The notes beneath the pieces are model-generated. The model made no database searches. It saw only the letters and a program-made list of their open reading frames with translations, and had not been told where the DNA came from. From Blastocatellia bacterium (lineage in GTDB: Bacteria > Acidobacteriota > Blastocatellia > RBC074), in NCBI GenBank assembly GCA_043736395.1, contig JAYTCQ010000032.1:1-63134 (forward strand): 63,134 nucleotides of DNA, written 5' to 3'. Positions 3,069-39,296 of the stretch are shown piece by piece (the stretch's first letter is position 1; every line of letters starts with the position of its first letter). The position numbers and the translations under genes are program-made.

Positions 3069-3124
3069 TAATTTATCCCGATAATATTTATTAGACTCCA
3101 AAGTTTTTACAAAGTTCCCAACTT

Positions 3125-3892
3125 ATGAATTTCATTTACGGATTAGTACCAGTAGTCGAAGCCTTGCGCGCCGGACGGCGTACCATTAGCAAAATTGTCA
3201 TTGCGACCAACGTCCAGCCTTCGCGCTTGAATGAATTAATACAATTAGCGCGCGCCTCGAAAGTGACGCTCGAACGTCGTGATCGCCGAGACCTGGATGA
3301 ATTCGCCAAAGGCGGAAATCATCAGGGAGTCATCGCCTTGCTCACCGGCAACGATGTTGGCGCTCGTAAAACTGCCGGATATTTCGATGCGGAAGAGCTG
3401 CTCGATAATATCGCGGGTACGCCGTTTCTCGTATTGCTGGACAACATCGAAGACCCGCACAATTTAGGTGCAATTTTGCGTACCTGCGAATGCGCGGGCG
3501 TAGACGGAATTTTCCTGCCCGAACATCGCTCGGCGAGCTTGTCAGAAACTGTTGCCAAGACTTCGGCGGGCGCGGTGGAATACGTCAAAGTCTCGAAAGT
3601 TACCAATCTTGTGACTTTGATTCACGAACTGAAAGAGCGCGGAATTTATGTCCTGGGCGTCGAAGGTGGAACGGACACGGTTTATACCGAAGTTGACATG
3701 ACGGTTCCATTAGCGTTGGTAATGGGCAGTGAAGGGAAGGGCGTAAGGCGCTTAGTCAGAGAGAAATGTGATGCGCTGATTTCAATTCCGATGCTGGGGA
3801 AAATTAATTCTTTGAATGTGAGTGTCGCGACAGGAGTGGTGTTATTTGAAGCGCAACGGCAACGAACTGTATCACGGACTGTTAGTCCGTGA
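3125..3892 (+). CDS. rlmB: 23S rRNA (guanosine-2'-O)-methyltransferase RlmB (TrmH/SpoU family)
   Basis: LDNIEDPHNLGAILRT, GSEGKG and SLNVSVATG SPOUT motifs; N-terminal substrate-binding domain. Confidence 0.92.
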   Translation: MNFIYGLVPVVEALRAGRRTISKIVIATNVQPSRLNELIQLARASKVTLERRDRRDLDEFAKGGNHQGVIALLTGNDVGARKTAGYFDAEELLDNIAGTPFLVLLDNIEDPHNLGAILRTCECAGVDGIFLPEHRSASLSETVAKTSAGAVEYVKVSKVTNLVTLIHELKERGIYVLGVEGGTDTVYTEVDMTVPLALVMGSEGKGVRRLVREKCDALISIPMLGKINSLNVSVATGVVLFEAQRQRTVSRTVSP

Positions 3893-3925
3893 GCATTTAG
3901 ACGCAGACTGACAGTCTGCGGTACG

Positions 3926-4648
3926 TTATCCAGCTGCACTGATTTCAGATTTGTAATACAGGATGCGTCCGCAGTTTTCGCATTCGTGGATTTTATCTCC
4001 ACGTTTGATTTCGCTGAAGGCTTGCGGGCGCATCGTCATGCGGCAAGCGGAACAGGCGTAATTTTTGGCTTCGGAAAGTACGAGGCCGGATTTCAGACGA
4101 GCTACACGTTCGTAGGTGGAACGGGTTTCGATAGAAAGTTGCGTGACTAAACGTTCACGTTCAGCGGCAAGAATTGCAAGTTTTTGTTGATCGGCTTCGA
4201 CAGCAGCGGCGAGCGCGGACAGGTGGTCGTCAACTTCCTTTCGCTTAATTTCAATTTCAGGAGAGCGTTCGTTGACTTGGACTTCGAGTTTCTCGACCTT
4301 TTCCATGATTTTCAGCAACTCAGTTTCTAAGGTACTGATCACTTTTTTGGTCGAATCAACTTCACGGACAGCGGTTGTGTATTCGCGCTCATTCGTCGCC
4401 TTCATCAAATCCGCTTTGAATTTTTCATGCTTGGCGGTTTCAGAAGCGATGTCTGTTTCAAGACGATTTTTTTCAGCGGCAGCAGTCTCGAATTCAGATT
4501 TGAGATTCAAGAATTCTTTGGCAGAAGCCTCAAACTTTCGTTCGATGGAGGTTTTACGCGTCGGCAACGACGCAGCTTCAGCGTTACAACGTTTTATTTC
4601 GATGTCGGTTTCCTGGAGCGAAACTAATAAGCTAAGTTCAGCGATCAA
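3926..4648 (-). CDS. Coiled-coil protein with C-terminal C4 zinc ribbon (DUF164-like)
   Basis: Long heptad coiled coil, then CSACRM...CENCGRILY; probable TTG start at 4648 behind AGGAG (ORF track extends to 4738). Confidence 0.85.
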   Translation of the reverse strand: MIAELSLLVSLQETDIEIKRCNAEAASLPTRKTSIERKFEASAKEFLNLKSEFETAAAEKNRLETDIASETAKHEKFKADLMKATNEREYTTAVREVDSTKKVISTLETELLKIMEKVEKLEVQVNERSPEIEIKRKEVDDHLSALAAAVEADQQKLAILAAERERLVTQLSIETRSTYERVARLKSGLVLSEAKNYACSACRMTMRPQAFSEIKRGDKIHECENCGRILYYKSEISAAG

Positions 4649-7361: not shown

Positions 7362-7463
7362 TGTTTTAGGAACGTCAAAAACTGTAAAAGAAAATTCTTG
7401 CCCATCCCCTCTGAATGTGAGAGCATCAAATTTGAGTTAAATTAAATTTATAAGGTACTCGCT

Positions 7464-7778
7464 ATGAACCTACTTAGTATTGATAAAGATATTCATCCGC
7501 TCTCTGACTTTAAGCGTAATACACCAGAATTTATTGAGCAGTTAAAGGCAACAGGTCGCCCTGCTGTCTTAACGGTCAATGGGAAAGCGCAGGTCGTGGT
7601 GCAGGATGCGCAGAGCTATCAAAAGCTAGTGGATTCGCTTGACCGTTCCGAAACCTTAGAAGCGATCCGGCTCGGATTAGAAGACATCAAAGCGGGACGT
7701 ACCCGTCCTGTGAAAGAATTCTTAGCCGACCTGCGGAAAGAATTCGGCTTCCCAGAAAAGGGCGATGTTAAGAAATGA
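7464..7778 (+). CDS. Phd/YefM family antitoxin
   Basis: IHPLSDFKRNT...GRPAVLTVNGKAQVVVQD...Y; ATGA overlap with the downstream toxin frame. Confidence 0.9.
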   Translation: MNLLSIDKDIHPLSDFKRNTPEFIEQLKATGRPAVLTVNGKAQVVVQDAQSYQKLVDSLDRSETLEAIRLGLEDIKAGRTRPVKEFLADLRKEFGFPEKGDVKK

Positions 7779-8077
7779 GTTACCGTGTCGAGATCACCGA
7801 AAGAGCTGAATGAGCGGCACGTGAAATTGTGATCTGGATTGCTGATTACTCGCCGGAGAAAGCCACTGATTGGTACATGGGTTTTTTGGAAGCGGTGGAA
7901 AGCCTGGAAACCTTTCCTGCTCGTTGCGCGATTATTCCAGAGCACTAAGGACAATCAGTTTTTCGACATCTGATCTTTGGAAAATATAGAATTATTTTTC
8001 GCATTGAAGACGAGGCTGTTTACATTGTTCACGTGCGACACCAAAAACAGAAGCCGCTCAATCCTGAAGATATTTAA
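7775..8077 (+). pseudogene. ParE/RelE family toxin pseudogene (two in-frame stops)
   Basis: MSYRVEITERAE*AAREIVIWIADYSPEKATDWYMGFLEAVESLETFPARCAIIPEH*GQSVFRHLIFGKYRIIFRIEDEAVYIVHVRH; TGA at 7811-7813 and TAA at 7946-7948, frame otherwise kept. Confidence 0.85.
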
Positions 8078-8088
8078 TCTCATAAACA

Positions 8089-8355
8089 ATGCAACCCATC
8101 CTCGGACAATCCTGTGAATGCGACGGCTGCCATCTTTGCCATCGGCAAGAAGATGACGGGCGTTGTCTCAACCTTCACGGTCAGAAATATCTCTTTGATG
8201 GGAGCGTCATTGAGTTGTACCATTTCAACGCCAGATTCTATTGCAACTCCTGCCTACCTAAACCAATTGTCGAACCTGCCAATCTTGACTTCAAATTATT
8301 CAATCGGGAAATGGAACGTTTAGAAAAACAAGAGACGTTATTTTTCTTTCGATGA
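8089..8355 (+). CDS. Small Cys-rich hypothetical protein
   Basis: 88 aa with CECDGCHLCH and YCNSC; fills the intergenic gap; no clear RBS. Confidence 0.45.
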   Translation: MQPILGQSCECDGCHLCHRQEDDGRCLNLHGQKYLFDGSVIELYHFNARFYCNSCLPKPIVEPANLDFKLFNREMERLEKQETLFFFR

Positions 8356-8472
8356 GTTAAGAGCACAGCCAGCCATTGTTCATGTCAAAATAGAATCCCG
8401 TTTTTAGTCACTTCCACTTTCTGATAGAATCGTCAAAGCCCCAAAATTAGAAATTTGAGGAGCAGTTATTTT

Positions 8473-9273
8473 ATGAAGTATTACCTCACCTGTGTCTTGG
8501 CAGTGTGTTTGTTTGCTTTGCCTGCGATGGCGCAAAAAGCAAAGCCTTCAAAAAGCAAAGTGTCAGGCAAAATTGCAACGACTGCGAAACCAGTGAAAAC
8601 CGAAGTGGCTGCGAAGACGGTTGGTGTTCCAAAGTTAGTGATGGAATCGCTGGAACATAACTTTGGCAACGTTAAAGAAGGCCGGATTTCAAGCTATAGT
8701 TTTTTAGTAAAAAATGAAGGCACGGGAGCATTGCAAATTGAAAGTGTAGCGTCTTCCTGAGGATGCACCGCAACCGACTTTGATAAAGTCGTCCAGCCTG
8801 GTCAGGTTGGGAAAATTACGCTCTCAGTGACTCCTTCGGGCAGAGGACAATTTGAAAAACATGCGACGGTGATAACGAATGATCCGAAGCAAGGTGTATT
8901 TGATTTGATTGTCAAATTTCAAACCAATTTGATGAAGGGCTATCGCGTTGGAAGTTTTTTGTTTGATCCGAAAGATGAGATCAGTGCGACCGTCAAGCAG
9001 GGTGAAGTTTTTACGCAAAAAATTGAAATTATTAGCGACGGTAGCGACACAGTCAAAGATGCTGTCAAAGTTGAAAAATTGGATTCAGATAACAATTATC
9101 TGAATTTTGAAATTGAAACAATTGAATCCGGCAAGCGTTATACTTTAGTCATGAAAAGCCGGAAAGATTTAGCAGCTGGTGTCTATACTCAATTGATGCG
9201 ACTGAAAACAAATAATAATAATCAGCCGACATTGGACATTACGATTGAGTTAACGGTACAGGCTAAACAGTAG
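8473..9273 (+). CDS. DUF1573-like Ig-fold exported protein with in-frame TGA (candidate selenocysteine, codon 96)
   Basis: Signal peptide MKYYLTCVLAVCLFALPAMAQ; HNFGNV...YSFLVKNEGTGALQIESVASS*GCTA...GKITLSV...FEKHATVITNDP. TGA 8758-8760 replaces the first Cys of the family S-C-G-C-T motif, and the frame continues to 9273. Confidence 0.8.
8775..8791 (+). promoter_or_regulatory. Candidate bacterial SECIS hairpin
   Basis: CGACTTT-GAT-AAAGTCG stem-loop; G at first loop position, 22 nt after the TGA. Confidence 0.55.
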
Positions 9274-9279
9274 CCGCTA

Positions 9280-10989
9280 ATGAAAGAATTAACTGTGAAA
9301 TTACTATTATCATTTTTGTTCGTTGTTTTTAATTCCGCTGCTTTCGCGCAGGCTCCCGCTGCGCGCGTGACCTTTGAAGCTGTTTCGCTCAAAGATGCAG
9401 GCATCACGTGGATACACGATAATGGCCGCTCTGATGAAAGATACCTGCCTGAAACATGTGGCGGCGGTGGAATTTTTTTCGACTTCGATAATGATGGTTG
9501 GATGGATATTTATTTTGTGAATGGCGGGCCGTCAGATTTTTATAAGCCTAAAAATCCAGTGAAAAATGCGCTCTATCGCAACAATCACGACGGGACTTTT
9601 ACCGATGTCACCGACAAAGCCGGAGTCGCTGCCGGACAAATGGGACATTTTGGAATGGGCGCGGCGGCGGCAGATTTTGATGGTGATGGATGGAAAGATT
9701 TATACGTCACGAATTACGGCAAAAATATTCTGTACCGCAATAATGGCAATGGAACCTTCACGGATATTACAGAAAAATCCGCGACGGGTGCTCCGGGCTG
9801 GTCAACGTGTGCGACGTGGTTTGATTACGACAACGATCAAAAACTGGATTTGTTCGTGTCGAGTTTTGTGAATTACAGCAAAAATACGGATGTGTTTTGC
9901 GGCGATAACAAAATGGGGAAGCGCTATTATTGCATCCCGCGCATTTTCAAGCCGATGCCTGGAAAGCTGTTTCACAATAACGGCGACGGAACTTTCACCG
10001 ACGTCAGCAAGAAATCTAAAATTGCAGATTCGCTCGGCAAGGAATTTGGCGCAGTTGCCACTGACATCAATAACGACGGATGGATGGATTTATTTGTCGC
10101 GAATGACACGGTTGCGAATTTTCTTTTCCTCAACAAAAAAGACGGCACATTTGAGGAAATCGGATTGCCTGCCGGAGTTGCCTACAGTGATTCCGGTCAG
10201 CCGCGTTCCGGCATGGGCGTAGATGCGACAGACTTTGACGGAGATGGCTGGCAGGATTTATTTGTCGCTAACATTGATCAGGAATTGTTCAGCCTTTATA
10301 AAAATTCCGGTGATCCCAAAGACATTACGTTTACGGATGAAGCTGCCGGAGATATTGGGCAAGCGACGCGGCTGCTCAGCGGTTGGGGATTGAAATTTTT
10401 TGATTATGACAACGACGGTGACCCGGATTTATTTCTGGCCAACGGGCATCCTGACGATATGGTGGAATCGCAGGTTTCCAAAGTGAAATACGCTGAACCA
10501 CTGGTGCTGTTTGAAAATATCAAAGGCAAATTCAAAAATGTCAGCGCTGATTCAGGCGCAATTTTCAAACAGGATTTTCCCGCGCGTGGAATGTCGGCTG
10601 GCGATCTTGATAACGACGGAGACTTAGATTTATTAATTATTAATAATGGAGCCGCTCCGGTATTGCTAAAGAATAATGGCGGCAATAAAAATAACTGGCT
10701 CGGATTGCAACTGGTCGCCAAGCAAAGCAATCCTGAAGCCGTCGGCGCAATCATTAGCTGGACAGTCAATGGGGTGAAGCGTCAACGCTTAAAAACAAGT
10801 GGTGGCAGCTATTTGGCTTCACACGATCAACGTGAAATCTTAGGGCTTGGCGCTGCAACCAAAGTTGAAAGCCTGGAAATTAAATGGCCGAGCGGCAAGG
10901 TGGATAAATGGGCAAATTTGACACCTAATTCTTATCTTAAAGTCGTCGAGGGCGAAACTGCTCCGAAAAATGTAGCGAACGCGAAGTGA
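9280..10989 (+). CDS. CRTAC1/ASPIC-UnbV family protein with FG-GAP repeats
   Basis: Repeated [20 protein letters not shown] motifs, G..F.DVT..AG, C-terminal [16 protein letters not shown]...IKWPSG; signal peptide. Confidence 0.92.
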
Positions 10990-13506: not shown

Positions 13507-16005
13507 ATGAACTCACATCAAAAAAGAACGAAAGAAATATTATCTTCATTTAGGGCGAGCTGGTTAATCATCATGATAGCCATCCTAATCACGATTCCAG
13601 TTGCAGCCCAAACCGCCCAAGTCGAGGGCCTGGCCTGGGCGCTCACAGCAAGCAATAAATTAATCAGCTTCAGCACTTTGGCACCGGGAACAATTAACAG
13701 AACGCTAACTGTCACCGGACTTCAATCCGGTGAGACAATACAGGGAATTGATTTTCGTCCCAGAACTGCGCAGCTAATTGCGGTCGGTTCGACCAGTCGG
13801 GTTTATAGTATTAATACTACCACCGGAGCCGCTACACAGATTGGCTCCGCAGTCTTTACCCCAGCATTGAGCGGAACTAAGTTCGGGGTAGATTTTAATC
13901 CTGTCCCGGATCGCATTCGCCTTGTCAGTGAAGCCGATCAAAATCTTCGCTTAAATCCTGACACTGGAGGAATAGCTGGAACAGATACGACACTTATCTA
14001 CGCCACTGGTGATGCAAATGTGGCAGCGAATCCTAATGTTGTCGGCGTTGGATATACAAATAATGTTTCCGGTGCGACGACGACTACGTTATTTGGGATT
14101 GATTCAAATCTGGATATTCTGGTTCGACAGGGATCAGTTGGAGGCGCGCCGACTTCGCCAAATACGGGGCAGCTCTTTACGATTGGAACTTTGGGATTTA
14201 ATACCACAGACCAAGTTGGCTTCGACATTGCTGATTTCAATGATGCGGCCTTTGCTTCATTAACAACATCGGGCGCGACGCAGTCACAGTTATATTCGAT
14301 AAATCTGACGAGTGGCGCGGCGACATTAATTGGGACAATTGGCGTTTCAGAAATTATTCGTGATCTTGCGATTGCGCCAACATTTACAACTTCGGCTCCG
14401 CAATCTTCTGTGATAGTGGTGAACGCCGCCAGCTACGCAGCTGATGTCGTTGCGGCGGATTCAATTGCCGCAGCATTTGGAATGTTTCAAACCCAGGATG
14501 GTCAACCCGCCACAACCACTTCGCTTCCGCTTCCGACGACCTTGAACGGCGTGAAGATCAATATTAACGGGCTTGACGCACCGCTTTTCTATGTCAGTAA
14601 TTCACAAATTAATTTTCTGGTTCCACCTCTGACAGCTCTTGGTGTCGCGACAGTTATCGTTACAAACGCGAACGGAACAACCAGAACCGGAACCGTCAAC
14701 ATCATGGCAGCGGCTCCCGGATTGTTTTCACGAACTGCGGATGGACGCGGAACAGCAGTGGCTTTGACGACGAATAACGGAATTAATTATCCAAGCATTG
14801 CGAACCCAGATGGCAGCGAACGTCAGGTTTCTCCGGGAACAGCCGCGCAACCGAATTATCTAATTCTTTACGGAACTGGCATTAAGCGCGCGCAGGCAGC
14901 GAATCCGAATGATGCCAATGGCGTAGCGGAAGCCGTCCAAGTGCTTTTTCAAGGTGTTCCAGGCACGGTGACGTATGCCGGACTGGCACCGAGCTTCTTT
15001 GGATTAGATCAGGTCAACGTAATTATTCCGCCGGAAATTTCCGGACTCGGAAAAATCAATGTGCAATTGCTGGTGAATGGAAAAATCAGTAACACGGTGA
15101 CTTTCACAGTAGGCGGAACACCACCTCAGGTGAGAGCGCAACCGTTAATTCCGGGGCAAGTGACGAGCGGTCAGTTAACGACCGATGATCAAATTACTTC
15201 TTCAGGAGATGGCAGCGGCAGGACTCAGTTTTTTGATGCTTACAGCTTCACTGCCAATGCTGGCACCGGCATTGCCCTGGATGTCAGAGCCGATCTTTTT
15301 GATGCTTCAGTTTTGCTCTACAAAAAAGAAACTGACGGATCAATGACCTTGCTCGCGGCAGACGATAATTTAGGTGGTTTGGGCGCTGGCAACCTCGATA
15401 ACACAAATGCGTTGTTACTGACGGTTTTACCCAGTGGTGGTGATTACGTAGTTTTTGTGACCAGCGCAGATGATGATCCGAATGCAGTTGGCGCTTACAC
15501 TTTGCGTCTCACCGGAAATGCGATTCAGCCGATCAGCTACGGCGCAAATCTTACCTCGGCAAGTATTTCCTCAACTGATTTACGCACTTCTGCCGGAACA
15601 TACTTTGATGCTTATTGGTTCGCCGGAGTGAAAGGCGATAACGTCCGAATAAAAATGGCTTCGACCAGTTTTGATTCATTTTTATTAATGAACACAAACA
15701 GCGGAGAAACGCTTTTCAGTGATGACAACAGCGGTGGTGGAAATGACGCGCAGATCAGTCAACCATTACCGGAAACCGGGATTTATGTGGTGATTGCGAC
15801 GCCTTATGAAGTCAATCAAACAGGCAATTATTCGTTAATGCTGAATCGAATTGCACCGGCTTTGGCTCAGACGGAAGCAATCAAACCGGATTCGATTTTG
15901 ACTCGTCACCGAACAGTTGGCAGCGTTGGCTTAGAAGCTGTCCGCAATCAAGCAAATTCACAATTTGAACGCTTCGCTTTACGACGCGTCATCGAACGCC
16001 ACTAA
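13507..16005 (+). CDS. Secreted multidomain protein: DUF4394 + acidobacterial IPT/TIG-like (TIGR03437-like) domain + PPC-like domains
   Basis: GIDFRPRTAQL, FGVDFNPVPDRIRLVS..QNLRLNPDTG (DUF4394-like); VNAASY...APLFYVSNSQINFLVP...AAAPGLFS...LILYGTG...GLDQVNV; two DDN/DAYWF PPC-like repeats. Confidence 0.8.
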   Translation: MNSHQKRTKEILSSFRASWLIIMIAILITIPVAAQTAQVEGLAWALTASNKLISFSTLAPGTINRTLTVTGLQSGETIQGIDFRPRTAQLIAVGSTSRVYSINTTTGAATQIGSAVFTPALSGTKFGVDFNPVPDRIRLVSEADQNLRLNPDTGGIAGTDTTLIYATGDANVAANPNVVGVGYTNNVSGATTTTLFGIDSNLDILVRQGSVGGAPTSPNTGQLFTIGTLGFNTTDQVGFDIADFNDAAFASLTTSGATQSQLYSINLTSGAATLIGTIGVSEIIRDLAIAPTFTTSAPQSSVIVVNAASYAADVVAADSIAAAFGMFQTQDGQPATTTSLPLPTTLNGVKININGLDAPLFYVSNSQINFLVPPLTALGVATVIVTNANGTTRTGTVNIMAAAPGLFSRTADGRGTAVALTTNNGINYPSIANPDGSERQVSPGTAAQPNYLILYGTGIKRAQAANPNDANGVAEAVQVLFQGVPGTVTYAGLAPSFFGLDQVNVIIPPEISGLGKINVQLLVNGKISNTVTFTVGGTPPQVRAQPLIPGQVTSGQLTTDDQITSSGDGSGRTQFFDAYSFTANAGTGIALDVRADLFDASVLLYKKETDGSMTLLAADDNLGGLGAGNLDNTNALLLTVLPSGGDYVVFVTSADDDPNAVGAYTLRLTGNAIQPISYGANLTSASISSTDLRTSAGTYFDAYWFAGVKGDNVRIKMASTSFDSFLLMNTNSGETLFSDDNSGGGNDAQISQPLPETGIYVVIATPYEVNQTGNYSLMLNRIAPALAQTEAIKPDSILTRHRTVGSVGLEAVRNQANSQFERFALRRVIERH

Positions 16006-16007
16006 TT

Positions 16008-16049
16008 AAAAAAAGGACTGTCAACAAGTCTGCTGATAGTCCTTTTTTT
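16008..16049 (+). terminator. Hairpin terminator/attenuator between DUF4394 and DUF4331 genes
   Basis: AAAAAAAGGACTGTCA ... TGATAGTCCTTTTTTT. Confidence 0.65.
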
Positions 16050-16097
16050 AATGGCAGGAAATTTTTCAAAGATAAATTTTAGAGAGGAATTAAAAGT

Positions 16098-17600
16098 ATG
16101 AACAAATTATTTTGCCACCTGAAATACAGTTTGGGCTTGGGCCTGATGGCGGCTTTGCTGATTGCGCCGGGCGCCAGTATCGCTTCCAGCCACATGGACG
16201 CGCCTTTGATTACACGCGATCCGTCTGCCAATACTACGGATGTCTATGCGTTTGTGACAAACAAAGGCGGAGCTAAATATTTAAGCGTCGCGCTGGGAAT
16301 TTATCCGCATGAATTTCCCGGCGTCGGGCCGAATAAATACAATTTTGATGACACGGTTCGCTACGAAATTCATGTCTCAACCGGAGCTGATGTTGCGGCG
16401 GGGCGTCCGACGTATACATATCGTTTTGAGTTCAGAACGAAATTCAAAAATCAGGACACAATTCTGCAATCCTATCTCGGAGTCGTGGCCGCGAATGACG
16501 ATGCGAATCAAAACTTAACGCAGATGTACACCGTTACCAGAGTTGATAATCGAACCGGATTTCAGACTTCACTGGGGACTGGCATTGTTCCCCCGAATAA
16601 TCAGGGCATCGCGACACCGTATTACAACGAAGGCGATAGCGGCGAAGCTCTGGCGCGAAAAGGCGTGGCGACTGAAGCAGAATTAGATCGCTATACAAAA
16701 AATGCGATTGCAACTTTACGCAATGGATACAGCGCATTCGCAGGCCAGCGTGATGATGGATTTTACGCGGACATTCAATCCATTTTTGATTTGCTCAGCC
16801 TGCGTAATCCGGGCAAGGATTCACAAGGTGGATTTAATATTCATCTGATGGCTTTGCAGATTCCGGTCAGTGAGCTGGGCGGAGACATGCAATCCGTCGG
16901 TGTGTATGCCACGACCAGCCGTCAGGTTGTCTCGGTGGCAGCAACGCCGGACGCCGGTGGACGTGGACTGACAACTCGTCGTGCCGCGCAGTACACGCAG
17001 GTCGCGCGTCAGGGAAACCCACTTTTTAATGAAGGTTTAGTGGCTCTCGTGGATAAAGATACATACAGCCGTACCAGTCCGGCCAGTGACAATCAGCTTT
17101 TCCGTAAGTATGCGACAAATCCTGAACTGGCAAAATTAATCAACCTGATTATTGGCAAAGGCGCGACGCTCGCGATTGAAACCAATCGGACTGACATCGC
17201 CGGGATTTTTATTCCTGATGTCATCAAAGTAGACCTTTCGACAGACGCCGTACCGCTGGCTGGTAATGGTGCTGCTGATGCTAAAAATCCTGACGGCACC
17301 GGGTTTTCACGGTTGAGTATTTTTGGCGGCGATGTAATCAAAAGTAAGATTCAGGACCCGTTCAAAAATGGCGGTTCAATTCCGAGTGGCTGGCCGAACG
17401 GACGCCGCTTTGGTGATGACGTCGTTGACATTGCCATCATTGCTTTGTTGTCTGATTTGCGTGATCCCAATAACCTGAAAATCAACGATCCATTTAAAGG
17501 AAATTATGACGGCGTGACGAGTAACGAGATGGGCTACAACAAAGTCTTCCCGTATGAATCTACGCCGCAGAATGGACGTAATAATAGTTTTCCGAAGTAG
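16098..17600 (+). CDS. DUF4331 family protein
   Basis: ASSHMDAPLI..DPSANTTDVYAF, FAGQRDDGFYADI, QVARQGNPLFNE, GWPNGRRFGDDVVDI, FPY motifs. Confidence 0.9.
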   Translation: MNKLFCHLKYSLGLGLMAALLIAPGASIASSHMDAPLITRDPSANTTDVYAFVTNKGGAKYLSVALGIYPHEFPGVGPNKYNFDDTVRYEIHVSTGADVAAGRPTYTYRFEFRTKFKNQDTILQSYLGVVAANDDANQNLTQMYTVTRVDNRTGFQTSLGTGIVPPNNQGIATPYYNEGDSGEALARKGVATEAELDRYTKNAIATLRNGYSAFAGQRDDGFYADIQSIFDLLSLRNPGKDSQGGFNIHLMALQIPVSELGGDMQSVGVYATTSRQVVSVAATPDAGGRGLTTRRAAQYTQVARQGNPLFNEGLVALVDKDTYSRTSPASDNQLFRKYATNPELAKLINLIIGKGATLAIETNRTDIAGIFIPDVIKVDLSTDAVPLAGNGAADAKNPDGTGFSRLSIFGGDVIKSKIQDPFKNGGSIPSGWPNGRRFGDDVVDIAIIALLSDLRDPNNLKINDPFKGNYDGVTSNEMGYNKVFPYESTPQNGRNNSFPK

Positions 17601-26948: not shown

Positions 26949-27536
26949 ATGAATCGAACAATGATGACAATCAGCGCTTTCGCTTTGTTTGCGCTAACGA
27001 TTATGGGGATGTCCTGCGCCACATCCACGCAGGCTAATAAAGCGACAACCGAAGCTGCAGCCGCCGCTACGGTCGCTAATGATCCAGCTCAACATGCTGA
27101 TCATGCTGAAGACGATGGTGTCCCACGTATTGCTCCGGCAGATGCCGTAGCCTTGGTTAAAAGTGGCAAAGCTTTGGTCATCGACACGCGTGATGAAGCA
27201 AGTTTCACTGCGATGCACATCGCTGGCGCTATTAATGTGCCTTATAAAGAATTTGTAGATAAAACCAATAAAGCACTGCCAAAAGATAAAGAGTTAATTT
27301 TTTATTGTACCTGACCAAGCGAACACACAAGCGCCGGTTCGGCTGCTATTTTGATGAAAGACGGATATAAAAATGTTCACGCTCTGTTAGGTGGGTTGTA
27401 TGGCTACAAAGATGCCGGTGGAGAAGTTATCCAGGCTCCTGCGCCGCCCGCACCACCAGCCGCCAGCCCGAGCGCGGGGGCTGCACCTGCGCCTGAAGCA
27501 AAAGCTACAGACGCTGCGAAGCCAAAGAAACAGTAA
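26949..27536 (+). CDS. Rhodanese-like (lipo)protein with in-frame TGA (candidate selenocysteine, codon 122)
   Basis: VPRIAP...LVIDTRDEASFTAMHIAGAINVP...LIFYCT*PSEHTSAGSAAILMKDGYKNVHALLGG: the rhodanese fold continues across TGA 27312-27314, with a CxU arrangement in the active-site loop. Confidence 0.85.
27330..27347 (+). promoter_or_regulatory. Candidate bacterial SECIS hairpin
   Basis: AGC-GCCG-GTT-CGGC-T-GCT stem with bulged T; G first in loop, 23 nt after the TGA. Confidence 0.55.
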
Positions 27537-34963: not shown

Positions 34964-35833
34964 TTAGCCGAACTCTGGCCCCAGAATTCCAAACTGTTTT
35001 TCAGGCAATCCCGGATAAGAATTTTCGCCACGATACATCCGTATAAATGGACGCTGTGCCTGGAAGTCAATGGATTCAAGCCACGTGCGCCAATCCATTG
35101 CATGATGCGTAGCGTCAAGGATAAATTGTTTGCCTCTTTGTTGATTTAGACACGCGCTCACAAGCTGGCGCGCTGTTGTCTGGTAGTGCGCGATCACTGG
35201 TCCCAAATGCTCAGCATTGTGTCCGTGTCGCCCAAAACAATATCCCGTGATTAGTCCTTGTTGTTCAATTACCCAAGCATATTCGGGCGCGCCTGCGAAC
35301 ATCCATTCCAACAAAACGCGGCGATCCGCACCGAACACTTCACAATCAAGGCGAAGTACAGCAGGAAAATCTTCGTGTGTCATCGGACGCGCCGGATTGG
35401 CTTGTTTTATCAGGCCTTCACGCGGAACCAGAATTTCCATTCGGCTCAGACTGTATTCATCAAAAAAATTGAGTTGCCGATAAACGCGGTGTCCCGCCGG
35501 AGTCGCGTCCAATCGAATGGATCGCACGTCTTTCAGTACGGCGAGAACTTCCTCCACTAGCATCGTACCAATCCCGTTCCCGCGTGCAGCGGGATCAACC
35601 AACACCATCCCCACCCAACTAAAAAGATGTTCGTAATTCACGGTAGCAACTGTGCCAATCACTTGACCGTCAATAATGGCGACGCGGCAACCGTGCGGGC
35701 TGAGTATGAGGAACATTTCCCAGTCGCGGCGCACTTGATTCCAGCCACTCGCGCGGCAAAGACGCAATCCGGCCTCAATGTCGGATTGACGCATTTCACG
35801 AAAGCTCACTGCGATTTCTGAGGGTAAGCTCAT
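34964..35833 (-). CDS. GNAT N-acetyltransferase (two-domain)
   Basis: GWNQ...DW, WVGMVLVDPAARGNGIG acetyl-CoA motif, LDATPAG..VY. Confidence 0.85.
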   Translation of the reverse strand: MSLPSEIAVSFREMRQSDIEAGLRLCRASGWNQVRRDWEMFLILSPHGCRVAIIDGQVIGTVATVNYEHLFSWVGMVLVDPAARGNGIGTMLVEEVLAVLKDVRSIRLDATPAGHRVYRQLNFFDEYSLSRMEILVPREGLIKQANPARPMTHEDFPAVLRLDCEVFGADRRVLLEWMFAGAPEYAWVIEQQGLITGYCFGRHGHNAEHLGPVIAHYQTTARQLVSACLNQQRGKQFILDATHHAMDWRTWLESIDFQAQRPFIRMYRGENSYPGLPEKQFGILGPEFG

Positions 35834-37595: not shown

Positions 37596-39296
37596 TTATG
37601 GTCTGCCAGTATCCAAAAACGCTTTCAGCTTACGTGAACGGGAAGGATGACGCAGTTTGCGTAATGCCTTCGCTTCAATTTGGCGGATACGTTCGCGGGT
37701 GACGGCGAAGTGTTGTCCGACTTCTTCGAGCGTATGCTCGCTGCCGTTTGGTCCGAGTCCGAAGCGCATCTTGATGACTTTTTCCTCGCGGGGAGTCAAC
37801 GTCTTCAAGACTTCTTCGGTGATTTCCCGCAGATTCAAATTGATGACTGCTTCGGCAGGATTTTGAATCGTTTTGTCTTCGATGAAATCGCCGAGATGTG
37901 AATCTTCTTCTTCACCAATCGGAGTTTCCAGCGAAATTGGTTCTTGCGCGATCTTCAAAACCTTACGAACTTTGGAAGCTGGGATGTCCATTTTACGCGC
38001 GATTTCTTCGCTCGTTGGTTCACGTCCGAGTTCCTGCACCAGCGCTCGTGAAGTCCGAATCAGTTTGTTGATCGTTTCGATCATGTGGACTGGAATTCGG
38101 ATCGTTCTCGCCTGATCTGCAATAGCGCGAGTGATCGCCTGACGAATCCACCATGTGGCGTACGTCGAGAATTTATAACCGCGACGATATTCGAATTTGT
38201 CGACAGCTTTCATCAAACCGATGTTGCCTTCCTGAATCAAATCCAGAAATTGCAAACCGCGATTGGTGTATTTTTTGGCGATGGAAACAACGAGGCGCAA
38301 GTTGGCTTCGACGAGTTCTTTTTTCGCCTGTCCGGCTTCAGCTTCGCCGGTGACGATGTTTTGCATCGCCCGTTTCATCTCAGCGGCGGAGATGTGGAAT
38401 TGCTCTTCCAGTTGAACTAAATGACGTTTGGCAGCGCGCTGTTTTTTCTCAAGCTCTTTGATTTCGTCAACTTTGCGTTTGCGTTCAAGCTGGCGCGTGA
38501 GCTTATCAATTTCACGATCAGTTTCTTTGACTTGCGCGGTCGCCGTACGAATTGCATTGACGAGGCGATTCTCCATGCGCGGCATCAATTCAAGGATGCG
38601 AACGTGTTGCGAAATGTCCACACGCATACGCATCAGCTTGCGGCGCATTTTCGTATGCTTGGGCGAACGTTTTGGCTCAATCAAATACTTTTCGTAATGC
38701 GTAAGAATTTTCTTGAACGACTTTCCGATTTCGGTGATTTGTTCGACGGTGTAGTTGTAATACTCCTCGACCTTTTCTTCAGTGATGCCTTCCTGCTCGG
38801 TGAACTGGACGACTTCACGAATTGTCAGTTGACCGGCTTCGAGTTCGCGACCGATTTTAATCAATTCCGTGATGGCCATGGGCGAACGCGAAATTGATTT
38901 TTGAGCGCGAATTTTGCCACGTTCGATACGTTTGGCGATAGCGACTTCGCCTTCGCGTGTGAGCAACGGTACGACACCCATTTCACGCAAATAAAGGCGA
39001 ACGGGATCGTTGGTTTTGTCGAGGCTGCCAGGAGATAAATCAATCTCGACTTCTTCTTCAGCGGAGTCTTCGATTTTTTTATCACTGCCACTGATGGCGG
39101 CATTCTCAAGGAATTTTTCATCGGAGTCGCCGATGGAAATTCCTTCAGCGCCGAGGGAGGCAAAAATATCCTCAATGTCGTCGGGGGAGACGAGACCTTC
39201 AGGCAATTCATTATTGATGTCATCGTAGCTGAGAAAGGCTTTGTCTTTGCCCATTTCCAACAGCTTTTCGACATCGTCTGTGTATTTCTCTTCCAT
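37596..39296 (-). CDS. rpoD: RNA polymerase primary sigma factor
   Basis: [95 protein letters not shown]. Confidence 0.98.

Follow-up and report, generated by a model that had tools for sequence, protein, structure and literature searches.

A contig of 63,134 nucleotides (nt) from a metagenome-assembled genome (MAG) of a Blastocatellia bacterium (GenBank assembly GCA_043736395.1, contig JAYTCQ010000032.1; this whole stretch is hereafter called the window) carries on its forward strand, at positions 8473-9273, a gene that very probably encodes a genuine selenoprotein. Its product would be an exported DUF1573 protein made of two immunoglobulin (Ig)-like domains, in which the UGA at codon 96 is recoded to selenocysteine (Sec, U). 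The gene is almost certainly an unannotated new member of a known selenoprotein family, OS_HP2/DUF1573 UGC, which has been catalogued since 2007. What is new is modest: an acidobacterial clade of Sec forms that annotation has split, a recoding element made of tandem hairpins with covariation, and repeated switching between Sec and Cys.

Two open reading frames (ORFs), 8455/8473-8760 and 8827-9273, share one frame, and the TGA at 8758-8760 is the sole break between them. Public gene calls on a near-identical contig divide the gene at this point into fragments of 95 and 148 amino acids, and the protein database holds the 148-residue fragment only. The joined product contains ...IESVASS-U-GCTATDFDKVVQPGQVG..., with the motif stretch VASS-U-GCTATDFDKV, and matches Pfam PF07610 (DUF1573) over residues 57-140 (E = 7.8e-20; 71.2 bits, above the gathering threshold of 26.1). 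The closest full-length database proteins (P0003 and P0004, 40-44 % identity) can be aligned across some 80 % of the length, upstream as well as downstream of the TGA. In homologues the consensus at this place is S-C-G-C-T, and alignments of 19 and 43 sequences show little or no variation at C96, G97, C98 and T99, U96 falling on the first Cys. A sequence-only reading of this DNA had already joined the two fragments in frame, supposed that standard annotation would split the gene, and named S-C-G-C-T as the usual family motif; the ORF listing, the public gene calls and the two alignments bear out each of these points. The same can be said, at the level of prediction, of the exported Ig-fold protein with a UxC motif that it proposed, since Pfam and an AlphaFold2 model support the fold and the turn, and the N-terminus reads as a signal peptide. 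Its question whether the family was already catalogued as containing Sec is answered by OS_HP2.

Further evidence is comparative. A scan of one genome per prokaryote species, queried with an alignment of the closest relatives, returned 80 loci. The codon that corresponds to U96 is again TGA in nine other Acidobacteriota MAG loci, with 10 further sites between them, at about 30-76 % protein identity (L002, L003 with two tandem paralogues, L004, L005, L006, L007, L008, L015 and one of the two paralogues of L016), and TGT or TGC in the other 70 loci fetched. TGA and TGY thus alternate at exactly the U96 codon with the downstream frame conserved, which is the outcome that the sequence-only reading had proposed to look for. 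Two marks of a bacterial selenoprotein gene are found together here, namely a Sec/Cys pair, in which TGA is aligned with Cys and followed by a conserved frame, and a TGA that recurs in other species (the 10 sites belong to nine species-level MAG loci). The nearest loci are the Blastocatellia MAGs L002 and L003, at 75-76 % protein identity; because their flanking genes are syntenic with those of the window and 88-96 % identical to them, the window is placed in Blastocatellia, Acidobacteriota.

Every TGA-bearing frame runs on to a normal stop, which in five of them is itself TGA. Pairwise ratios of non-synonymous to synonymous substitution rates (dN/dS) are 0.05-0.34 both upstream and downstream of the TGA, and the frame is under purifying selection on both sides. 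These data bear directly on the possibility that the TGA is a true stop, leaving either a pseudogene or a 95-residue N-terminal fragment and, apart from it, a 148-residue product that begins at GTG 8827. Gene callers give the latter result, and the fold that follows the TGA is not significant when the sequence is taken singly (see below). Nevertheless, such a reading is very improbable. A nonsense codon would not be retained at one and the same site in 11 genes whose identity drops to about 30 %, and conservation in the protein is highest in the 22 codons that separate the TGA from GTG 8827, where dN is very low. On the structural model the cut would split one beta-sandwich between strands 87-94 and 98-103, so that neither piece could be expected to fold, and the hairpin covariation described below is confined to the TGA forms.

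Exchange between Sec and Cys has occurred repeatedly in this group, as no fewer than three Sec/Cys changes are required on the maximum-likelihood tree. Among its branches is a sister pair in two genomes, L015 with TGA and L009 with TGC. Tandem DUF1573 paralogues are found in L003 (at 2237 and 3274, both with TGA) and in L016 (at 3217 and 4409); in the latter one paralogue has TGC and its neighbour TGA with both hairpins, a Sec/Cys pair within one genome. As a separate observation, orthologues nested within those of Blastocatellia are found in MAGs that bear the label Heliomicrobium or Heliobacteriaceae (Bacillota), namely L009, L011-L014, L027, L030, L031, L035 and L037, of which L009 and L012-L014 share the synteny with holA. 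The taxonomic labels of these records look wrong.

Could the TGA be a sequencing or assembly error for TGC or TGT? The window stems from a MAG assembled at low depth (about 5-9x), which gives this explanation its only footing, and its likelihood is negligible. A separately assembled contig in ENA (L001), which differs by one single-nucleotide polymorphism elsewhere, has the same TGA and the same hairpins. Logan contigs from three runs of one study (X1, X2 and X4) cover the codon without difference. A different study contributes a 151-nt contig (X6) over 8670-8820; it departs from the window at three sites, each a third codon position, and has the TGA unchanged. The orthologues from nine other MAGs have it as well. 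The contigs of a further run, X3, break between 8746 and 8790 and are hence uninformative on the TGA. For a TGC or TGT in the reads, which the sequence-only reading had named as grounds for giving up its proposal, the assemblies give no sign, those from several samples all keeping TGA, and sequencing error is for practical purposes excluded.

A global reassignment of TGA was also considered and rejected: 20 of the 55 long ORFs in the window stop at TGA, as do several of the recoded relatives. Since TGA also ends normal genes here, recoding is site-specific and does not reflect a change of the code. The other TGA-bridged frames of the window (among them 3095-4150, 35125-35622, 37665-38420 and 50836-51432) overlap long ORFs on the opposite strand or extend normal genes, and were set aside as spurious on that basis alone.

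Site-specific recoding to Sec in bacteria calls for a selenocysteine insertion sequence (SECIS), a stem-loop in the coding region immediately 3' of the UGA, and such a structure is predicted here. The sequence-only reading had pointed to a hairpin, CGACTTT-GAT-AAAGTCG, with its loop G (position 8782) 22 nt after the A of the TGA. This hairpin (hairpin 1) stood up to comparison, being conserved with compensatory changes only in the TGA forms. It is directly followed by a second and stronger one (hairpin 2), absent from the earlier reading. Hairpin 1 alone folds at -5.0 kcal/mol and hairpin 2 alone at -10.1 kcal/mol, both together at -15.7 kcal/mol. Single-sequence folding is not significant (z = -1.7; 10-13 of 200 shuffles fold as well) and was rejected as stand-alone evidence, so that the significance of the hairpins derives from the comparative evidence.

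For this comparison the two hairpins were imposed on a gap-free alignment of the 11 TGA forms, and the same columns in 14 Cys-form relatives served as reference. Taken together, 93.3 % of the cells are paired in the TGA forms against 52.4 % in the Cys forms, the latter being no better than shuffles. The difference holds for each hairpin, with 94.8 % versus 59 % for hairpin 1 and 92 % versus 46 % for hairpin 2. Five pairs change on both sides in the TGA forms, two in hairpin 1 (C-G to U-A and G-C to A-U) and three in hairpin 2 (C-G to A-U, G-U to U-A and U-A to C-G); none of 500 shuffles reaches their covariation score, and sliding the register lowers pairing to 33-56 %. In the sister pair L015/L009 hairpin 2 folds in the TGA form only, L015 having kept hairpin 2 together with a hairpin 1 that lacks the loop G. 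The protein sequence follows the same division: nine of the 11 Sec forms read D-F-D-K-V where most Cys relatives read D-F-T-K-[V/I], and it is the Asp codon that provides the loop G of hairpin 1. Moreover, dS is lowered in the 23 codons after the TGA in six of seven comparable pairs (0.20 against 0.68-1.1 between the window and L002), as an overlapping RNA structure predicts.

The two hairpins were compared with published rules for bacterial SECIS elements (bSECIS), and each departs from one of them. These rules ask for a loop of 3-9 nt, a stem of 4-16 base pairs (bp), a G in the first two loop positions, a distance of 16-37 nt from the UGA and a minimum free energy of at most -7.5 kcal/mol (PMC13188914). 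Like a standard element, hairpin 1 has a 3-nt loop that begins with G, a 7-bp stem and a spacing of 21 nt, and the loop of hairpin 2, G-G-U-C, agrees with the G[G/U] pattern. They differ from the consensus in being two adjacent hairpins instead of one extended stem. The prototype of bacterial SECIS elements, that of E. coli fdhF, also has GGUC as its apical loop.

Several observations weigh against the assignment as a selenoprotein gene. Neither hairpin satisfies the bSECIS rules in full: hairpin 1 passes in loop, stem, G and spacing, but its -5.0 kcal/mol falls short of the -7.5 limit, whereas hairpin 2 passes in loop, stem, G and energy but lies at 39 nt, 2 nt beyond the permitted 37. Part of the capacity of hairpin 2 to pair is owed to Pro (CCN) and Gly (GGN) codons, which the protein would require in any case. 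As for the Sec machinery, ARAGORN finds in the window a tRNA-Leu only and no tRNA(Sec), and motif scans of the window yielded neither a SelB-type GTPase motif nor a SelD-like motif; Rfam at gathering thresholds likewise reports tRNA-Leu only for the window, and ARAGORN on 81 loci found no tRNA(Sec). By these scans the window contains none of selA, selB, selD and tRNA(Sec). Finally, the best NCBIfam match, NF041425 or 'OS_HP2 family (seleno)protein' (E = 7.1e-23), scores 80.8 bits, below the curated cutoff of 100, and the gene is for this reason filed under the broader DUF1573 UGC selenoprotein family and not under the NF041425 subfamily.

Independent support for recoding comes from a second gene of the same window. 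When TGA is read through, the ORF listing contains a rhodanese with a signal peptide (26949-27536, forward strand), interrupted by a TGA at 27312-27314 in the context ...LIFYCT-U-PSEHTSAG.... It matches Pfam Rhodanese, and among NCBIfam models it is matched best by NF041203, 'rhodanese_LYCAU, rhodanese-related (seleno)protein', with 70.6 bits where the cutoff is 115; its F-Y-C-T-U agrees with the L-Y-C-A-U pattern in the name of the model. A hairpin, AGCGCCG-GUU-CGGCUGCU, lies at 27330-27347 and has a 3-nt loop beginning with G, 23 nt after the UGA. In contrast to the tandem of the DUF1573 gene there is only one hairpin, at the position of hairpin 1. Four database orthologues of 74-93 % identity are all truncated at ...ELIFYCT, and in the DNA of two such orthologues (L086 and L088, 74-80 % identity) the TGA, the downstream frame and the hairpin are all kept. 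A metagenome scan for this rhodanese yielded distant homologues only, without Cys at the U position. The exported rhodanese may be regarded as a second candidate selenoprotein; it belongs to a different protein family from DUF1573 and is relevant solely as independent evidence of UGA recoding. Two unrelated genes within 63 kb that have conserved TGAs at catalogued Sec positions and hairpins of matching geometry indicate that this organism recodes UGA.

Recoding does not by itself specify the amino acid, and the assignment of Sec to codon 96 is one that we infer from sequence. There are published descriptions of opal suppressors of the selC* type, i.e., tRNA(Sec)-like tRNA(Cys), and of allo-tRNAs, the latter occurring in Acidobacteria (PMC5389517). 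One of these might insert Cys or some other amino acid, whether or not SelB takes part, and the choice between residues cannot be made from sequence alone. This alternative is nonetheless improbable, given that selC* has been reported from Firmicutes, Thermodesulfobacteria, Nitrospirae and Proteobacteria and not from Acidobacteria (PMC5389517), and that both recoded genes of the window belong to families catalogued as selenoproteins and have the TGA at the catalogued positions. Acidobacteria are recorded as Sec users and have known selenoproteins (PMC1794560). In addition, a TGA with a dedicated RNA structure just for the insertion of Cys offers no obvious benefit when the sister genes simply use TGC. 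With Sec as the inserted residue, SelB carrying Sec-tRNA(Sec) would bind the tandem stem-loop while the ribosome stands at the UGA, hairpin 1 being at the canonical distance and hairpin 2 presenting the G-G-U loop, and the completed preprotein would be exported by means of its signal peptide.

The coordinates of the gene and its parts are collected in Table 1. The signal peptide is followed by a low-complexity linker rich in Lys, Ala and Thr that extends to about residue 50, and a hydrophobic N-terminal leader is also present in those orthologues that start cleanly. Besides PF07610, the HYDIN/VesB-like Ig family PF22544 gives a match (E = 1.3e-14). An AlphaFold2 model of the 266-residue product has a mean predicted local distance difference test score (pLDDT) of 83.8, with values above 92 in the DUF1573 domain and around 50 in the linker, which is modelled as disordered and precedes two Ig-like beta-sandwiches. 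S95-U96-G97 is predicted to form a tight exposed turn joining strands 87-94 and 98-103. The second Ig-like domain is conserved in the closest homologues. Foldseek with the model returned generic Ig domains of the ASH/HYDIN type and 2qsv, a P. gingivalis protein that is uncharacterised, none of which gives a mechanistic lead, and a PDB sequence search with the DUF1573 protein found no relative.

Table 1. Positions of the candidate selenoprotein gene and its predicted elements in the window
Feature	Position	Strand	Remarks
Shine-Dalgarno-like GAGGAG	8457..8462	+	10 nt upstream of ATG 8473; direct sequence reading
Complete selenoprotein gene (predicted)	8473..9273	+	ATG 8473 to TAG 9273; 266 codons + stop; TGA at codon 96
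Putative signal peptide MKYYLTCVLAVCLFALPAMA	8473..8532	+	Sequence reading; probable A-x-A cleavage site
DUF1573 Ig-like beta-sandwich with U96-G97-C98 turn	8629..8925	+	Residues 53-151; Pfam and AlphaFold2
TGA, predicted Sec codon (U96)	8758..8760	+	Aligned with nearly invariant first Cys of CGC
TGC, Cys98, UxC partner of U96	8764..8766	+	TGY in every examined locus; invariant in 19-sequence alignment
Hairpin 1, CGACUUU-GAU-AAAGUCG	8775..8791	+	7 bp, loop GAU; candidate SECIS upper stem-loop; 21 nt from UGA to loop
Hairpin 2, UCCAGCCU-GGUC-AGGUUGGG	8792..8811	+	7-8 bp, loop GGUC; candidate second part of recoding structure; 39 nt from UGA to loop
Second Ig-like beta-sandwich, Cys-free	8935..9270	+	Residues ~155-266; AlphaFold2 strands 157-263, pLDDT mostly 86-95

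The family to which the gene belongs has a history of its own. OS_HP2 was described in 2007 as a new selenoprotein family from the metagenome of the Olavius symbionts (Zhang and Gladyshev, PMC1976440), and the Global Ocean Sampling selenoproteome of 2008 lists it as 'OS_HP2, pfam07610, UxC', with two Sec and 354 Cys forms (PMC2398784). DUF1573 with UGC is listed as a selenoprotein family in reviews of 2022 and 2026 (PMC9312934, PMC13188914). The window gene has in common with OS_HP2 the same Pfam domain, PF07610, and a Sec at the first Cys of CGC, giving U-G-C (UxC), and the OS_HP2 model NF041425 is its best match in NCBIfam. It differs in its host, a member of the Blastocatellia (Acidobacteriota) as opposed to the deltaproteobacterial symbionts of Olavius and the marine metagenomes that define the family, and in its architecture, which comprises signal peptide, linker, DUF1573 and a second Ig domain free of Cys. 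The acidobacterial Sec forms are in the protein database as fragments only.

What the U-G-C turn does is a separate matter. The reading we favour, and which we consider about evenly balanced, is that it may serve as an exported selenol/thiol redox centre. After export to the periplasm, the S-U-G-C turn, which joins two beta-strands at one end of the sandwich, could cycle between the selenol/thiol and selenylsulfide states. This reading is based on the exchange of Sec and Cys, on a CxC-type motif in an exposed turn and on fusions of DUF1573 with glutathione peroxidase. Exchange of Sec and Cys is typical of redox-active cysteines. As in the CxC redox motifs and Sec/Cys pairs of thiol oxidoreductases, two chalcogen residues stand one residue apart in an exposed turn and Sec and Cys are interchangeable; unlike in these enzymes there is no thioredoxin fold, the scaffold being an ASH/HYDIN-type Ig sandwich. 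As to the fusions, a glutathione-peroxidase domain (PF00255, E = 1e-40 to 5e-44) is joined C-terminally to paralogous DUF1573 domains whose identity to the one here is 47-50 % over the domain. Three such proteins (P0018, P0019 and P0021) have a similar leader (signal peptide), a DUF1573 domain with CGC and a glutathione-peroxidase/AhpC-TSA domain that keeps NVAS-x-C-G, and they suggest that DUF1573 may be tied to thiol peroxidase chemistry by a Rosetta-stone link. The Acidobacteriota loci L018-L037 have similar DUF1573 domains and possibly the same fusion.

Two points tell against a redox function. There is no experimental literature that gives DUF1573 a function or an activity, the redox role being deduced from sequence features, and in the examined loci there is no conserved neighbour pointing to a pathway, the flanks being holA, priA, aminotransferases and the CRTAC1-like gene. 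The same turn, with Sec as its residue, could instead be a site for soft metals or metalloids (Cu(I), Hg, Zn, As), as in periplasmic Ig-like metallochaperones. Ig-like beta-sandwiches are common among periplasmic metal carriers, copper chaperones bind Cu(I) through CxC motifs, several metal-binding families with paired Sec/Cys motifs appear in published lists of selenoproteins, and the model places the U96/C98 pair in an exposed turn. This explanation is the more doubtful of the two, in that no genes for metal resistance or metal transport flank the gene in any examined locus, the only informative domain fusion is with a thiol peroxidase, and the alignment has no additional conserved His or Met ligands near the motif. 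Returning to the redox centre, one may speculate further that the acidobacterial DUF1573 Sec proteins and the exported CxU rhodanese are parts of a selenoproteome directed to the periplasm, and that U-G-C on an Ig scaffold, with Sec inserted through a tandem-hairpin SECIS in which the G-G-U loop falls beyond the consensus spacing, constitutes a catalytic centre of a new type, acting either as a stand-alone selenol peroxidase or as an electron-relay partner of periplasmic glutathione-peroxidase-like enzymes. We regard this extended proposal as unlikely.

The surroundings of the gene are varied. holA lies upstream, in a synteny common to several Cys and Sec relatives, while other loci are flanked by housekeeping genes (priA, aminotransferase, CN-hydrolase, radical-SAM). 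Downstream, at 9280-10989 on the same strand, is a gene for a CRTAC1-like exported protein with FG-GAP repeats and a UnbV_ASPIC domain. It starts 7 nt after the stop of the selenoprotein gene with no terminator-like site between them, and the two probably share a transcript; of the relatives, only L002 and L003 retain the pairing. In both the window (7362-8472) and L001, holA and the DUF1573 gene are some 1.1 kb apart, as compared with only about 110 nt in L002 (2892-3001). This interval holds a gene for a Phd/YefM-type antitoxin (7464-7778), after which no recognisable toxin is found, the ORFs at 7839-7973 and 8089-8355 having no Pfam match; it looks like an inserted and possibly decayed remnant of a toxin-antitoxin system. 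Elsewhere in the window (13507-17600, forward strand) two large genes lie side by side, for a DUF4394 protein of 832 amino acids and a DUF4331 protein of 500 amino acids, both of families without assigned function.

These results do not overturn the current understanding of selenoproteins; their value lies mainly in annotation and in a neat case of SECIS evolution within a coding sequence. Public gene calls split or truncate this gene as well as its orthologues in nine or more other Acidobacteriota MAGs, and automatic pipelines miss these acidobacterial DUF1573 Sec forms because they score below the NCBIfam cutoff for OS_HP2. The rhodanese at 26949-27536 is cut short and missed in the same way, scoring below the cutoff of its own NCBIfam model. 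For DUF1573, a large family, the fusions with glutathione peroxidase provide a first functional hint that can be tested. Moreover, the 11 TGA forms and their Cys sisters make up a clean natural experiment, with a TGA/TGC pair of paralogues in one genome and a sister pair in two. They appear to illustrate how a SECIS is built inside a constrained coding sequence, where a change from Thr to Asp creates the loop G and Pro and Gly codons are tuned into a stem of 8 bp.

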